This document shows positions 1-42,365 of a DNA stretch of 64,000 nt, piece by piece. Source of the stretch: Bispira polyomma (Eukaryota); contig OZ287748.1 of NCBI GenBank assembly GCA_965649765.1, forward strand, positions 11,594,001-11,658,000, given 5' to 3'. The position numbers were made by a program, and so were the translations under genes. Numbering within the stretch: the first letter of the stretch is position 1; the number at the start of each line of letters is the position of its first letter. The notes under the pieces are model-generated. The model did not search any database and was not told the DNA's origin. It saw nothing but the letters and a program-made list of their open reading frames with translations.

Positions 1-2003
1 CAAGTGTGAAGGTTCAGGAATGCCGGATCCGGATGGAACCGGAGGTTCCACGGTTGTCTGAGTAAGTTGTGGCGTGGAGGTAGCAGTAGAGGGACTCGCA
101 GTGATAGGTCCACGAGGTCCCAGAACCAGGGCATTCCCGGCCACCCTGGGGCTATGAGAAGTATCCTGCACCTGTGGGTGCGTACTTTGTTGATCACCTT
201 GGTGATCAGAGTTGTCGGGGGATAACAGTAAACGTCCAGGTTGTCCCAAGATATGTTGAGAGCATCCACTGCCCAGGCTTGTGGATCTGGGAGTGGAGAG
301 ACGTATATCGGTAGCTTGTAGTTCAAGTTTGTTGCAAACATGTCCACATGTGGGGTGTACCACTGGCGACACAGGGTTTTGAAGATCCGAGGGCAGAGTG
401 ACCACTCTGTCTGGATGACTTGGTTCTTTCTGGAGAGAGCGTCGGCGATGACGTTTCGACATCCGGGAATGTGACGAGCTCTGAGAGTCACGGCTGACTT
501 GTGACACAATGTTTGTATCCTCCAGACTAGGGCACACATCTCCATTGAGTGTGTGCCTCCCTGCTTGTTTATGTAGGCTACCACAGATGAGTTGTCTGTT
601 GACAGAAGGACTCTTTGACCGGTGCACTGAACCTTGAAGGCCTGTAGAGCCCGATAGACGGCCTTGAGTTCTAGGACATTTATGTGTAGATCTTGTTCGG
701 ACACTGACCATCCGCCTCTTGCTGTGTGATAATCCAAGTGAGTGCCCCAACCTTCGTTTGAAGCGTCTGTAAAGAGCAATGTATTGTGCTCGAGAGGATG
801 GAGGGAGTCTCCCACCAACACGTTTTTTGGATCCAACCACCATTCGAGGTGAGCCTTGAGGAGAGGGTCCACTGGAATGAGTTTGTTTAAGGTTTCTGGG
901 AACCTCCAGTGGTTCTTCAGGTGCCATTGTAGAGGTCGCATTTGAAGGCGACCCCCAGGAACTTGTTTTTCTGTTGACGCAAGGAGGCCGATAAGAGACA
1001 TCCAGAGTCGCACAGACACCTGAGCGGTGATGAGTATCCGGTTGATCATATCCTGTAGCTTGCACAACCGGTCTGTTGTAGGTAGTACCAGTCCCCTCTG
1101 TAGATCGAACTGGTACCCGACGAAGGTAAAGTTCTGTGAGGGGATAAGTTCCTTTTTTTAAGACTTTTTGTAATTGATGATCCAGCCCAAATCTGTGATG
1201 AGGGAGATCAAGGTCTCTGTGCTGGCTTGGCATTGAGCCGCTGAAGGTGCTCTGATAAGCCAGTCGTCCAAATACTGATGCATCCGAACTCCCAAAGAGA
1301 GGGCCATCAGTTTTACTTCCTTGACTAGTAGAGTGAACTCGTGAGGGGCTGTTGCTAGTCCAAATGGAAGAGCCCTGAACTGGTAGGACTTGCCTCTGTG
1401 GTGGAACCTGAGGTATTTTTGAGACCTGGGGTGAATAGGGATGTGTAGATAAGCATCCGTGAGGTCCAGTGAGGTGACCCATTCCCCCTGTTGTAGGGAG
1501 GCCCGGATAGATTCCGGGGTCTCCATGCGGAACTTGTGGACCTCGAGGTATTTGTTGATAGTACTGAGGTCTATGACCGGTCTCCATCGGTTGCCCGGTT
1601 TGGGTACAAGGAAAAGACGACTGGTGTATCCCAACGAGTTTGTCTTTTGCACCGGTACGACTGCTTGTTTTGACAGAAGGTCCACCACACAGTTGTGTAA
1701 GGCTTTGTCTTTTTCTACTCCCGTGTATCCGCTTATGATGTATGGGAACCGGGAGAGAGGAGGCTTTCTCCTGAATGGAAGGGAATATCCTAGTCTTATG
1801 ATATCCAGTTCTCTTTGGATTATTCCTTTTGATGTCCATTCGGGCACAAAATGAAGCAAACGCGCCCCAACCCCTAAGGGCGTCTGCTCCGGTGGATTCT
1901 CATTTGGATGAGCCACCGCGGCCTCCACCACGAGAGAAAGGCTTTTTGAAGCCTCCTCCTGATCCTTTGTCCGATCCATTGCCACCACCGCCTCCACGGC
2001 CAC
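1..2003 (-). pseudogene. DIRS pol: reverse transcriptase, RNase H and Dam-like methyltransferase domain; in-frame TAA at 1158-1160
   Basis: RT motifs LDLTDAYLHIP, LPFGL, YLDDWL. After the stop the same frame stays open to base 1, with FTDASNEGWG, HINVLELKA, TDNSSV, HIPGCRNVIADALSR (RNase H) and VDMFA, YCYPP, APGWPGMPWF (MT-like). Confidence 0.93.
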
Positions 2004-4690
2004 CCCTATAGGAGTTATTTCCCCGCCCCCGGGAAGACCGACCGCGTCCCCCCTGGTAATAGGGTGAGGACCGGTTGCCGCGGTATGAGCCCTTGGATGA
2101 GCTACTTTTGCTTTTGTAGTCCCCTGAGGAACTGCGGTTTGTGTTATAGCGTTTATCGTTCTTTATGGCCTCCTGGGCCTTGGTGACAACCGCAGGGTCG
2201 AATAGATCAGTCGATTGGTATGGAGATGACCTCAGGTCGGATTTTAAGTGACCTGGCACAAATGGGTGCAGATTTGTTAACACGGCATCTCTTCTAAAGA
2301 GAATTGTGTTAGCCATCATTGTCATTATGTCTGCGTGGAGGTGTCCCACGACCCGGGACATGCTAATCATGACCCTCTGTGCAACAGCTAGGCTTTCTTC
2401 TTTAAGAGCCGGGTCCTATATCGGTAGCTTGTAGTTCATGTTCTTGGCGGGCCTTTGTGATTGCTATCTCAGCAGCTCTAGAGAAGTGCGAGTAGTGGTT
2501 GAGAGCTGAGAGCCACTCTTTTTGTCTACCCTCCCACTGCCGCATTTGCTTTTGAGACACATGACAGGCCGGAGTCTGTCTGGGGTTGTTCTGCTCTATA
2601 TCTCGGAAATTGGAATTGAGCAGTTGAGGTGTAGATGACCACGCAGCGTCTTGTATGGGATAAAATTTTACATCCGACCTGGGCATTTTAAGAATTTCTC
2701 CTTGTTGAAGGCGCCTAGACTCTCCACCGGTAGGGTGAGCAGTTGTAGCGAGAGTAAGGGCCTGGAATTTTGAAGCCAAGTCTAAAGCCGGTAGCTTGAG
2801 AGATGGGGGCAATACGGAGTCCTCCGCTGCGGGCTGTGCCCGAAACAGTGACGTTGAAGAATCCTCCTTAGGAGTTTCTTTTAGTTCTGGGATGTCAAGT
2901 ATTGTCCTAACAGCCTTCAAAGTTTCTACATATGTAGGGAAGTATGTATACTCGTCCCTAGTTGTGGTGGCGTTATCGTCCTCAGAAAAATTTCGGTGGG
3001 AACGCGAGGAATCCCGAGAGGTTCTTCCCGGTGTAGGAGAATTTAAATGTTGGCCAATCTCCTTTGCCCTTTTCCTTGCAGCGATAAACTCTGCAGAGTG
3101 TTCCTCCTCATTTTCATCTGAGACTTCGCCTGCCTCGCGTTCTGGGTCCCGTGCAGGGGGAGCCCCTAGAGAAGCTGAAGGTTTAGCCTTCTGTTTGGAT
3201 TTAACCGGTTTTGCCGGTTCATAGTCAGATGAGTCACTTGAAGAGTCCGAGGATGACGAGTCTGGGGTTCTCTTCTAATGACGACTCTTTTTATCCTTTT
3301 TATGCTTTTTCTTTTGTTCTTTCTTGAACTTCCGCTCATACCTGGCCAAGGTTTTAGGTGACATATATTCCATTTCCTGATCTGGGTCAGGAGTGGCTTT
3401 GTCCCATGATATTTCTGGCTGTGTATCCATGGGGGCCTTGGTATGGTGTAGGCCATAAGACCTATCCGGTTGTTCGAACAGAGGCTCATGGTAGCCCCTA
3501 GTATGAGCTTGTTGTTGGGTGGATGTTGATAAGACATCACCGTACTGGTCACGAGGCTGTTGAGCCGGAGTGAGGCCGCTACCTGGTGTGAGAGGCTCCC
3601 TCTCACGGGTTTGGTTTTTAAGATAGGATAGTTCCTTCATGAGCATTTGGAGTAGTAGATCAGACTTTGCCGTCTGCTGTTGGAGCAAATTGTCGGTACG
3701 CTGCTGTTGCAGGTCCATTTTGCCGTGCAGAGAGAAGAGTTCAGTGGTGAACTGATTTCTCAAGTTATCTACGAGAGCACGCGACTGTGTCATCGGTGTA
3801 GCAGGGGGTAGTGGAGGTAGTGGCTGAATACCGGGTATACCCGGTGCTGGGCCTAATCCTGTCACGTTTTCCAATGGGATCTGTACATCTACCCTCTGAG
3901 GATAAGGTGGCTGAAAACCACTAGTGGAAGCCGTGGGCTGAGGTTGTTCAGCAGGTTCATCGAGGAGGACGTTGGCTTCAAAGTCTGAAACCTCCATGGC
4001 TTCTGCACTGGTGCCGGTGCCGGTTAGACCGGTAGCACCACCGGACCGGTTAGGCGAGTCTAGCAGGGTATCTTCTGGGGATGCCAGAGGGGCCCGTTTC
4101 TTTTCCTGCCGTTGTCGGTAGGTGACTCTTGATTTTATTTTTGTTCGTTGATCATCTGTGAGGCTATCACAAAATTTGCAAAAATCTGACGGATTCTTGG
4201 CACAAGAGTCCTGTCCTTTTCCAGCCTGTCGGCAGGTAGGACACCACCCATGATCATCCCATGAGGCAAAGAAATGGCCACAACGGCCCTGCTTTTGCCC
4301 AGATTTTGTGCCACTAGCTTGTCTAGGAGGCTTGGGAGGAGGGGTGGCAACACAGATGAGTAAAAGGGCAGCGCATATCAGGGATATGGCCACAATAGTC
4401 AGGATAGCAAGGGGAGGAAGCTGTGGTGAGGTAGACTGTCCAGAGACATTGGCTCTACACTCCACTGTGCTGAGTAAACTCAGCCATAAGAAGACCCAGA
4501 GAACTGAGCTCCTGCTTTCCCCTGAGGGTGAGAGCACCCCCACAAGATGCAATAAACTCGGAAACCGAGTAGCCATCTTGTATCCAAGGAAGATAAGGCC
4601 AGAGCTGAAAGCTCTGCAAAACCCCATGAACCCTATCCAGGTGGGACTAAAAAAGTCCAGCATGATCCATATACAAAGAGCTAACTCCAT
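1900..4690 (-). pseudogene. DIRS gag-like ORF1 (~920 aa reconstructed), with in-frame TAG at 3275-3277 and frameshift at 2417-2438
   Basis: Zn-finger-like CGH-x7-H-x2-CPTC...C...CKFC, Lys/Ser-rich linker, RRDAVL motif and RG-rich C-terminus. The ORF-track pieces 3275..4690, 2402..2920 and 1900..2370 join up. Confidence 0.85.
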
Positions 4691-5249
4691 GATAACAATT
4701 CACATTAAAAACCTGTAACAATCTTTAAGAATATTCAAATAAAGTTCGTAATCTGAACACGATGTCTTCAAAATGGCGACCAGTAAAAGAATGGTCGTTT
4801 GCGTAGCTTCTCGCGCAGGGTCACGTGATGTCCCGGTCCCCGGCGGACTGACTCTCGTCGGAGGCGACCGGTACATAACCCCTTTTCTCTTAGGGATTGG
4901 TCGTCACCGGCAGGCGAACTACCGGTAAGCACACAGTTTCACTGGGTAAGTAATTGTATTGCAATAAAATTACCCTAATTTGTACATTACCCAGGGCTCA
5001 CTATAGTTGTTATAGTCCACTAGTTAAGGTCTTCACACACTACAGCGAGGCGACTACTAGCAAGCCGTTAGTAAATAGTTGAGAAATCAATAATCTGTGT
5101 GCAACCTTTCACATTCTTTGCAAAATAAAGTACTAGACTAAGTGAGGTGAGGTGTTCTAAACAAGACAATTTGTGTCCGTGGTACCAAATATAGTAGTAG
5201 AGAAAATTGTATTCAAGAAAGTATACATTAACATTCATGGTTTTATGCA

Positions 5250-5497
5250 AGTCTGAGTTCTTATTTGGGGTGTAACAGCAATGAAACCAGTGGCTTTGCT
5301 GATACACACCACTGACTAGTACACATACTGCCTAGCAATAGTGTAAAAACTACTTCTATAGAAGATAGATTTAAGGATTTAGTCGTAGATAGTCTGAGTT
5401 CTCATTTGGGGTGTAACAGCGATGAAACCAGTCGCTTTGCTAGTACACACCACTCACTAGTACATGCTGCCATGTGATAGTGTACAGACTACTTTTA
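5250..5497. repeat. Intronic direct duplication (~107 bp homology, 141-bp period)
   Basis: agtctgagttct...ggggtgtaacagc...actagtaca at 5250 and 5391. Confidence 0.85.
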
Positions 5498-8295: not shown

Positions 8296-8447
8296 CCCAT
8301 CAATCATGCCTTGGTGTTGTTGTATTCGGACTGCCAGTAGGAAGGCAAACAGAAGCTTGTGCTTCTCAAACAGGGACCTGCACACATTGCTGTAGAGGCT
8401 GAAGGTGAAGTACTCGTTGATGTTCTTGGTCCTCTGAGGGATGTTGT
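8296..8447 (-). CDS. DNAH1: Dynein HC exon: DNIPQRTKNINEYFTFSLYSNVCRSLFEKHKLLFAFLL...MIDG
   Basis: TTTCAG acceptor, GTAAGT donor, 152 nt. No further exon found between 1 and 8295. Confidence 0.96.
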
Positions 8448-8679
8448 CTGAAATAACAGTCCACAATTCACTAGACTAAAAATACCTATTATATTCAATT
8501 AGTACAATAAAAACAATATATAAAATCATGTGCTTCATTTATGGCTCTGAGTCCTGTATTATATATATATCTTCTATATATCCAAAGAACCTATCCTTGC
8601 GAACATTCATTTTGCTAGAGCTTTAAACGCTGAATTTAAATAAATAATCAGATTTTATTTATCTTCTCTCTCACCAGAG

Positions 8680-32609: not shown

Positions 32610-33084
32610 CTTACAGTAAATAGCTGTAGGTAGGTAATACTTACAGTAAATGGTGCCAGCCAGTAATTACTTACAGTAAATGGCCCCAGGTAGGTATTTA
32701 TTCACAGTAAATAGTCCCAGGTAGGTAATACTTACAGTAAATGGTCCCAGGTAGGTTTTATTTACAGTAAATGGTCCCAGGTAGGCAATACTTACAGTAA
32801 ATGGCCCAGGTAGGCATTACTTACAGTAAAGGGCCCCGAGTAGGTTTTATTTACAGTTAATGGCCCCAGGTAGACAATACTTACAGTAAAGGGCCCCAGG
32901 TAGACAATACTTACAGTAAATGGCCCCAGGTAGGTTTTATTTACAGTAAATGGTCCCAGGTAGACAATACCTACAGTAAATGGCCCCAGGTAGGTTTTAT
33001 TTACAGTAAAATGACCCCAGGTAGACAATACTTACAGTAAATGGCCCCAGGTAGACAATACTTACAGTAAATGGCCCCAAGTAG
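32610..33084 (-). repeat. 30-bp minisatellite (15 extra copies) made from the 5' splice site of exon 33066-33476
   Basis: Sense unit TACCTGGGGCCATTTACT|GTAAGTATTGTC. Confidence 0.97.
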
Positions 33085-33476
33085 GCCACAGTTCCTGAGG
33101 ACACCAGAATGTCTCCTATGATGTTTCCTATGACACGTTCCAGTGTGGCCACAGATTCCTGCCATCTTCCTTTCTCATCAGCCAGGCCTCCAATCAGTTT
33201 ATCAGCCCTCACTAGCCTGCCCTCACATTCGTGAGTCTTGTTCTGAAGCTCGTCCTTCTTACGTATACAGTCCTCATACTTGGCCTGTAAAGTGGCGATA
33301 CCTTCCTCCACCTCAGCCAGACGTTTTCGAGCTGCGTCCAGAATCCTTTGCGTCTCTGCTAACTCCTCCTGGGCAATACGCAGTGCCTCCCTTTTGGGAG
33401 CTACACCTTTGGCCACAAAGTGGTATTTGTGCATGGCTCGTGCCCACTGGCAGATGGACGTACAGGCCTTGGACAC
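33066..33476 (-). CDS. DNAH1: Dynein HC exon, MTBD/CC2: VSKACTSICQWARAM...LIGGLADEKGRW...AYLGPFT
   Basis: TTACAG acceptor, first GTAAGT donor at 33065, 411 nt. Confidence 0.95.
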
Positions 33477-33977
33477 CTGTAACGAAGACATGATAGAAAT
33501 ACAGTAGACCCTTTATTGTAGGAAATTAATTTTTTAACATTCTTTATCATAGTTGATCACCTCAACATTTTTGCAATATTGTAGTACATACTGCTTTTTG
33601 AAATAACAAGGTTGAACAAACCTTCTTTCAAAGTATTTAATTGTACTTGGATTTTTGGCTTTTCTAGAATATTCAGCCCAAATCACTTTTTTGGGTGTTT
33701 TTTGAGTCCAGTTTATTGTTTGTAAACAAACATGTACATTTCTATTTAGAATTATTAAATTACACCAGTGAGCTGATGGAAAAGATACTGTTTTGCTATA
33801 TTTTATTGCCAGAAAGCAAGAAGGTTCAGGTGTTTACTTAATTGGGTGAACTACCATGATACAAGAATCTATCTCTATGTGACGACGGCCAGATTGTCTG
33901 GTACATATTCTTACTGTGTTGTTACCAAGGTATGAATCTTTCAAACAGACACCCTTTACAGCAGTAATTGTACCTAC

Positions 33978-40951: not shown

Positions 40952-41845
40952 CTACAACACAAATTACTCTTACACAAGCCGCTCACTACTAGTAAGTTTA
41001 TTACAGGGAGACAATTATAATTAAGTCACTCAAATAGTACAATAAAACCTCTTTTATTCAAACTTCTATTATCCAAATTAATTTTTGATTTTATAAATTC
41101 ATTTTCAATCTCCTAAATTTGTGTTTTCCTATTATTTTATACTAAAATACATCTTTTATTTAACGAACCTTCTATTATATGAACAAATCTTGCTATACAA
41201 ACATGTTCGTATAATAGAGGTTCTATCTATTGTGTTGTATAATATATTTTTAACATGCTTTATTGATGCGACATATTTTCGAAAGCACAACAACTGAATC
41301 AATCAACCAATCATGTGTCCTACAACACATAATCGGGCTCGTCATCAGTAGGCAATGGTGTGTTGTCATCTTGCCTAATACTATTATCCCACTGATGAAC
41401 ACTATCGGCATCACCAGGAGCCGAACCAGGAACCTTCTGATCACCAGGCCAACTCCCTGACCACTAGACTATAGGAGACCATACTACTACTATAGTTATT
41501 CAATATCTAAATGCTATTCATCTGATAAATTTCTCACTTTTTTTTTTAACTTAATTCTTTTAAGTCTATAAATAAAAAACAAATTAAGTAATACATCCTA
41601 CTATATACAACATAGTTTTATTTTTGGTTAAAATTGATTGTCCAAATTTTCAATGTTTTATTGTAAAAATAAAAATTTAGTAATACATACTATATACAAC
41701 ATATTTCCAAAGCATTTTGGAGGCCCATGTTCTGAAATTCTAGCATTTTTTTATTATCGAAAAATGAGTAGGTAAAAACGCCTACAACCTTTTAATCATC
41801 TAGATTTAGATGTGTACAAAATGTCATAAAAGACAGTGAACCTAC

Positions 41846-42042
41846 ACATGAGCAGCTAGCCTGGTTAAGCTCTGTCGGCCGCTGCCACCCATCCCTAACA
41901 GTAGAGCATTGCCCATGGGCTGTCTGATGATGCGGGCAATACGGGCCAAGTGACGGATAGCATCCATAAAGAGTACCAGGTTCATGACTGAGGTGTTGAC
42001 CTGGTTGTAGTCTTCTAAGTAGTCCTCTACAGTTTGTACCAT
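41846..42042 (-). CDS. DNAH1: Dynein HC exon, AAA4 Walker A: MVQTVEDYL...LVLFMDA...GMGGSGRQSLTRLAAH(V)
   Basis: GTACAG acceptor, GT|GTAGGT donor, 197 nt. Confidence 0.94.
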
Positions 42043-42365
42043 CTGTACAAAAACACACACAAGTAGGATGTGGTCATGATGGAAATGGCCAGTTTTATAC
42101 TCAACAAACAAGAACCAGTGAACAGAACCTTGTAATGTTTGTACCAACTGTACAAAAACACACACAAGTAAGATGTGGTCATGACGGATGGCCAGTTTTA
42201 TACTCAACAAACAAGAACCAGCGAACAGAACCTTGTAATGTTTGTACCATCTGTACAAAAACACACACAAGTAGGATGTGGTCATGACGGATGGCCAGTT
42301 TTATACTCAACAAACAAGAACCAGTGAACATAACCTTGTAATGTTGGTGCCTTCTGTACAAAATT
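42032..42365 (-). repeat. 103-105-bp tandem repeat (3+ units) containing the 3' splice site of exon 41846-42042
   Basis: Sense GTTTTTGTACAG|ATGGTACAAAC recurs, with variants, at 105/103/103 spacing. Confidence 0.96.

Follow-up and report, generated by a model that had tools for sequence, protein, structure and literature searches.

A predicted signal-peptide and transmembrane leader under purifying selection on ORF1 of a clade of DIRS1-like retrotransposons

The window analysed here is a 64,000-nucleotide stretch of a 1.035-Gb assembly (G000:C1:11594001-11658000). On its minus strand it carries the 5′ part (~5 kb) of a 7.07-kb DIRS1-like retrotransposon, whose GC content is ~50% across window 1-4970 versus ~35% elsewhere. 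The features of the element are collected in Table 1. The window copy is not intact: ORF1 is disrupted by a stop at 3275-3277 and a 22-nt insertion near 2439, and the Pol ORF by a 9-nt insertion that brings in a stop near 1161. Dynein heavy chain exons lie at 32997-33512 and 41842-42300 on the minus strand (Pfam MT and AAA_8), with a further probable exon near 8331-8450, and the element, which is on the same strand as the dynein heavy chain gene, is likely to lie in its intron or just downstream of it. A 74-nt direct repeat (92%, spacing 141) at 5250-5464 is found just upstream of the element.

Table 1 Features of the retrotransposon in the window
Feature	Position in window	Strand	Detail
Left inverted terminal repeat (~200 nt), starts ATT	4767..4970	-	Repeat match
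Acceptor-like YAG in 5′ UTR	4711..4718	-	AG at 4713 kept in 11/12 aligned copies
ORF1 (Gag-like)	1900..4690	-	920-930 aa where uninterrupted
H1 (M1-K38), moderately hydrophobic helix	4577..4690	-	Strong start context at M1, atcATGG
Predicted signal peptide M39-C78, second start aagATGG	4457..4576	-	h-region and -3/-1 site
Polar linker, predicted lumenal ectodomain	4412..4456	-	NVS sequon 4442-4450
Predicted stop-transfer transmembrane helix, residues 94-115	4346..4411	-	Kyte-Doolittle 19-mer mean 3.09
TPPPKPPR basic/proline juxtamembrane motif	4322..4345	-	At the start position of leaderless relatives (M-[AS]-[ST]-P)
N-terminal zinc finger of DIRS ORF1	4169..4282	-	C-x9-H-x2-C-x2-C-x9-C-x7-C-x2-C
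Pol ORF (RT, RNase H, methyltransferase-like region)	1..2162	-	Pfam RVT_1 E 3.5e-18

The first 43 nt of the left inverted terminal repeat (ITR) are complementary to an internal complementary region (ICR), and its nucleotides 11-204 match the right ITR at 95%, ~6.8 kb downstream and past the window start (L021). The tyrosine recombinase (YR) ends a long ORF that overlaps the Pol ORF, and its end likewise lies beyond the window start. For checks of element structure, 20 copies were retrieved whole. All 20 have ITRs of ~200 nt that are 93 to 97% identical, an ICR that matches the left end, NTT termini (each begins ATT, TTT, GTT or CTT), and the same layout of ORF1, Pol and overlapping recombinase; the ICR matches the right end over 63 nt (L021/L025). 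Pfam matches in copy L025 include RVT_1 (E 2.9e-21) and RT_RNaseH (E 1e-5), and its 988-aa ORF matches Phage_integrase (E 1.1e-4, under the Pfam cut-off) as well as SAM-like domains. No Pfam match to a methyltransferase (MT) domain was found after RNase H in L025; the region at the expected place carries motifs that we take to be MT-like. A Pfam search of ORF1 returned nothing above the cut-off. The ITRs, ICR, NTT termini and ORF layout are features of DIRS1-like elements in the accessible text of PMC3266345, and ORF1, RT/RNase H with a candidate MT region, and the overlapping YR ORF are likewise shared with them, as far as the accessible texts describe (PMC3266345, PMC7192593, PMC9210276). 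The element is a DIRS1-like retrotransposon, and the DIRS identity proposed in the first-pass annotation is borne out by its ITRs, ICR, NTT termini, RT/RNase H and recombinase ORF.

In the window copy, the minus-strand ORF at 3275-4699 has M1 at 4690, and residue 137 is the first Cys of the zinc finger. The first-pass annotation had described about 135 open codons before the finger, and 136 are counted; the signal-like stretch, the NVS sequon, the hydrophobic helix and the PPPKPPR motif (4322-4342) that it reported are all present. The h-region, VLWVFLWLSLL, is at 4472-4504, and a -3/-1 site, V-E-C, stands just before R79. Methionines occur at residues 1, 10, 22 and 39 and next at 232, in agreement with the gap from residue 39 to ~230 already pointed out. 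H1, read from M1, has a Kyte-Doolittle (KD) hydrophobicity of ~1.4-1.5 and contains Asp and Pro. An AlphaFold model of the leader is of low confidence (pLDDT 49.6).

Leader openness and dN/dS in other copies had been proposed as checks, and both are now available. The frame is open from M1 through to the finger in 16 of the 20 nearest copies. In subfamilies A-C, 55 distinct copies were compared: 52 have an open frame across residues 1-115 and 47 across the control residues 116-230, counts in which intact copies are favoured because copies were picked by similarity. NG86 dN/dS for residues 1-115 is 0.29-0.70 (12 pairs), and 0.04-0.39 for the finger region. Between subfamilies, leader values are 0.29-0.40 (p ≤ 2e-3), and Fisher tests on residues 1-115 give p values of 1e-6 to 2e-3 in 4/4 pairs. 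By segment and pair, dN/dS is 0.12-0.87 for the helix and 0.02-0.28 for the zinc finger; H1 alone has dN<dS in two of four pairs (p=1.6e-3), the other two being not significant. Variable columns in the leader number 54 of 115 at the second codon position, and 86 and 92 at the other positions. An antisense ORF at 4254-4718 was rejected as a by-product: it is interrupted by stops in 10 of 16 other copies, and its openness in the window can be put down to how rare Tyr, His and Gln codons are. Since second codon positions vary least and the antisense frame is so often interrupted, selection acts on the sense protein.

These comparisons bear on the possibility that the leader is a T-rich 5′ UTR, hydrophobic by chance and non-functional. 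The UTRs of leaderless relatives (family F of the same genome, described below) are indeed 42-47% T, and 11 database matches have hydrophobic gene-caller extensions before a normal or apparently mutated start. However, T in the leader is not spread evenly and is enriched at codon position 2 (0.43-0.44), the start codons are conserved, and indels between subfamilies, whose lengths in the UTR are not divisible by 3, keep the frame in the leader except in decayed copies. When A-versus-D divergence was simulated neutrally, an open frame with both hydrophobic segments was left in ~1/10,000 runs. Together with the dN/dS values, these observations largely refute a chance UTR, to which we assign hardly any probability. 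On this evidence the leader is confirmed as coding and under purifying selection.

Ten leaders were scored for anatomy: those of seven subfamily A-D copies, one family E copy and two ENA proteins that come from other samples. An h-region is found in 10/10 (KD 10-mer 1.87-2.85), as is the helix (KD 19-mer 2.39-3.43), and the cleavage-like site reads VEC, VEG, VEA, VYA, VES or VET; for P0007 the script chose the second VET, and we read the first, right after the h-region, as the site. Signal peptidase sites follow the -3/-1 rule, which this V-x-small motif fits, and the motif is accordingly a predicted signal-peptidase site. The polar linker is ~14-19 aa long in the scored leaders, begins with R, K, A or S, and is fast-evolving, with dN/dS near or above 1 in most pairs. 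Net charge is +3 to +6 over the 25 residues after the helix and -1 to +2 before it. Signal-peptide and stop-transfer anatomy, as the first-pass annotation had read it from one copy, is thus conserved across families. Its N-glycosylation sequon did not hold up as a functional part: of 41 further copies scored, just 9 carry NVS, and these are all near relatives of the subfamily to which the window copy belongs.

Start codons are conserved along with the layout. M1 is ATG in 11/12 aligned copies and M39 in 12/12, and the older subfamily D (54-60% identity over the first 200 aa) retains M1, M39 and the same arrangement. We consider it probable that a cleaved signal peptide followed by a stop-transfer helix makes a type I Gag that is tethered to the ER or nuclear envelope and exposed to the cytosol, a topology based on hydrophobicity, the -3/-1 rule and charge. 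A rival reading has two products or an inverted topology: M39 would give the type I form, and initiation at M1 would make H1 a first membrane anchor, so that some ORF1 would be multi-spanning or, like glyco-Gag, lumenal; or else the released 78-residue signal peptide would have a function of its own. Both M1 and M39 are conserved in strong context, H1 is selected in some pairs, and an H1-like stretch lies ahead of the h-region in family E, P0152 and P0007. Against an H1 anchor stand its only moderate hydrophobicity, with the Asp and Pro noted above, the basic cluster past the last helix, which favours a cytosolic C-terminus, and the zinc finger and RG-rich tail, which would presumably suit the cytosol. 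We judge this rival, with H1 insertion or two products, unlikely and retain the type I topology.

Whether the leader could be bypassed depends on start and splice signals. The acceptor-like CAG at 4713 that the first-pass annotation had pointed to is present, but it is upstream of both start codons and so cannot remove the leader. The working Gag could nonetheless be leaderless, through splicing, an internal promoter or a non-AUG start, the anchored form then being a minor accessory isoform. Most homologues function without a leader, and a TAG acceptor with a pyrimidine tract lies just before the finger (4323) in 8/12 aligned copies, those of subfamilies A-C. However, all four D copies have GAG at this site, splicing to 4323 from the strongest donor downstream of M39 (4557, on average 6.1 of 9 matches) would break the frame, and the only phase-compatible conserved GT (4685) is weak, matching 2-4 of 9 positions. 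No shared acceptor in matching phase was found before pol in three validly placed copies. Several D and E copies have Mets within the helix; among aligned copies there is no conserved in-frame ATG near the finger and no Met that would restore a leaderless Gag, so the earlier argument that an AUG-initiated, unspliced Gag includes the leader stands. Splicing-out of the leader is unsupported by sequence, and a predominantly leaderless Gag seems to us as unlikely as insertion of H1; the leader-bearing, type I protein remains the preferred form.

To place the leader among relatives, a profile search was run over 1.84 billion representative proteins, and it returned 380 zinc-finger homologues at E≤0.001. 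Among the best 150 of these 380 matches, 139 have a recognisable finger, and 107 of the 139 start ≤30 residues from it; leaderless homologues typically begin MSSPGQKRGSC-like. A hydrophobic upstream stretch was seen in 14 of them. In 11 of the 14 a normal or apparently mutated start is kept at the finger, and these extensions look like read-through of T-rich UTR. The full leader layout is found in the ENA proteins P0003 (cluster member P0152) and P0007, and weakly in P0092; in P0007 a Met at the helix end could start a leaderless form. A word-index homologue search returned no sequence for full ORF1 and, for P0007 and P0003, no sequence other than the query, metagenome and viral contig scans found no relatives, the ESM Atlas gave no usable match, and PDB sequence searches gave none.

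Within the genome itself, family E (L093-095, apparently one duplicated insertion) has 67% Pol/recombinase identity to the window family and carries a shorter leader of the same design that ends VYA|R. Family F comprises 14 decayed copies without such a leader, nearly all with a Met right before the finger. An unrooted Pol+YR tree of 13 copies separates seven leader-bearing from six leaderless copies with support of 1.0, and the leader-bearing clade has at least 130 recent copies beside its decayed leaderless relatives. The leader is likely to be a derived addition, given the leaderless sister clade in the same genome and the 107 of 139 homologues that start near the finger. It was probably added at the old start, since leaderless proteins begin M-[AS]-[ST]-P and an [ST]P motif that follows the helix lines up with this beginning. 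The T-rich UTRs of family F make recruitment of the leader from UTR plausible, though unproven. A zinc-finger tree did not separate one clade from several for the ENA and own-genome leaders and was uninformative because its midpoint root fell among own-genome copies.

In the type I mechanism, translation would begin at M1 and/or M39, and SRP would carry the ribosome together with the element RNA to the ER. Signal peptidase would cut after V-x-[C/G/A/S], before R79, leaving a tiny lumenal linker followed by the stop-transfer at residues 94-115. The basic cluster would fix the C-terminus on the cytosolic side, with the zinc finger and the remaining 800 residues in the cytosol. Gag, RNA and enzymes would in this way be concentrated on the ER or nuclear-envelope membrane as a site of replication or assembly, and RNA capture and reverse transcription would be concentrated at the tethering membrane. 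As no recognised protease is encoded by the element, the tether would stay in place unless cleaved by a host enzyme. An env-independent exit, in which the cytosolic helical domain of membrane Gag polymerises, bends the membrane and wraps RNA or cDNA into vesicles that pass from cell to cell, e.g., from soma to germline, is a speculative extension that we think improbable, if slightly less so than H1 insertion or a leaderless Gag. No canonical late-domain motif was found in four uninterrupted ORF1s.

The leader on ORF1 sets this element apart from DIRS1-like elements as described: the word "transmembrane" does not occur in the accessible text of PMC3266345 and PMC9210276, and transmembrane segments go unmentioned in that of PMC12440569. 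Searches of the open literature turned up no report of a DIRS Gag anchored in a membrane. An analogy with gammaretroviral glyco-Gag had been suggested. The accessible text of PMC12530543 describes MLV glycoGag as an additional isoform with a CUG start and a predicted type II topology that places glycosylated Gag outside. In both, Gag is extended at its N-terminus by a segment that contains a membrane helix; unlike glycoGag, the leader here has conserved AUG starts with no normal downstream start, a predicted cleaved signal with cytosolic Gag, and an unconserved sequon, and its charge distribution argues against a glycoGag-like type II topology. Since glycoGag is a CUG-initiated extra isoform of predicted type II topology, the analogy is a loose one and does not survive in any close form.

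Ty1 offers another precedent. According to the accessible text of PMC3945221, Ty1 Gag is targeted by SRP to the ER and enters the lumen, and retrotranslocation has been proposed. Co-translational delivery of Gag and RNA to the ER to nucleate assembly would be shared, whereas a permanent anchor is predicted here in place of lumenal entry. The Drosophila MDG1-group sORF2, which is FAST-like, is a separate protein of 63-107 aa whose structured ectodomain, ~30 aa long, exceeds the linker here in length; it has amphipathic motifs and, in many cases, a myristoyl site, as far as the accessible text of PMC11952523 describes it. The predicted processed form of the leader resembles sORF2 as a small N-out single-pass module with a juxtamembrane basic patch in an env-less element. 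The sORF2 module is encoded upstream of gag, whereas here it is fused in frame to a 930-aa ORF1 behind a signal peptide, and the linker here is 14-19 aa, polar and unconserved, unlike the sORF2 ectodomain. From sequence comparison, we regard the leader as genuine and under selection, a variation at clade level on a known element class, with a predicted function. The leader provides a simple handle for localising DIRS ORF1; a leader-bearing clade beside decayed leaderless relatives in one genome makes a natural comparison. The leader would be a further example of a structural protein from a retroelement gaining a signal for ER entry, and is relevant to how retrotransposons may spread independently of env.

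DIRS ORF1 is without clear homology to retroviral Gag in the accessible text of PMC4495291. We modelled the C-terminal domain of ORF1 (window ~2150-2560, minus strand; L025:6645-7442), with a mean pLDDT of 54.8 and confidence only in a helical hairpin. A weak match to LAP2alpha (2v0x) was obtained (Foldseek rank 3, E 1.0; VIA Z 6.8, 125 aligned, rmsd 4.0), and no Pfam match to a LAP2alpha-type domain was found in ORF1 of L025. A weak match is expected, the LAP2alpha domain having a DIRS origin (PMC4495291, accessible text). ESCRT-III cores take all of the top five places among the VIA matches, at Z 9.8-10.3, values that the tool's calibration puts in the noise range for helical bundles, and this resemblance, like the LAP2alpha match not significant, may be taken as only a lead.

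Several minor features of the element were also recorded. The 22-nt ORF1 insertion matches a 26-nt stretch of the same copy's pol region (window 294-329 and 2407-2442), which suggests a template switch. In families A and E the ORF1 stop (1897-1902, minus strand) forms part of an ATGA tetranucleotide, and the recombinase ORF of 988 aa continues in the ORF1 frame directly after it; readthrough or reinitiation at this stop is possible. The ITR at 4944-4953 has TACTTACC; read in reverse complement, as GGTAAGTA, this forms a perfect splice donor in the right ITR and the ICR, and it is also kept in leaderless family F. Two head-to-tail copies are present at L035 (C12:20032000-20041900), and L040 has an internal duplication of ~1.3 kb in pol.
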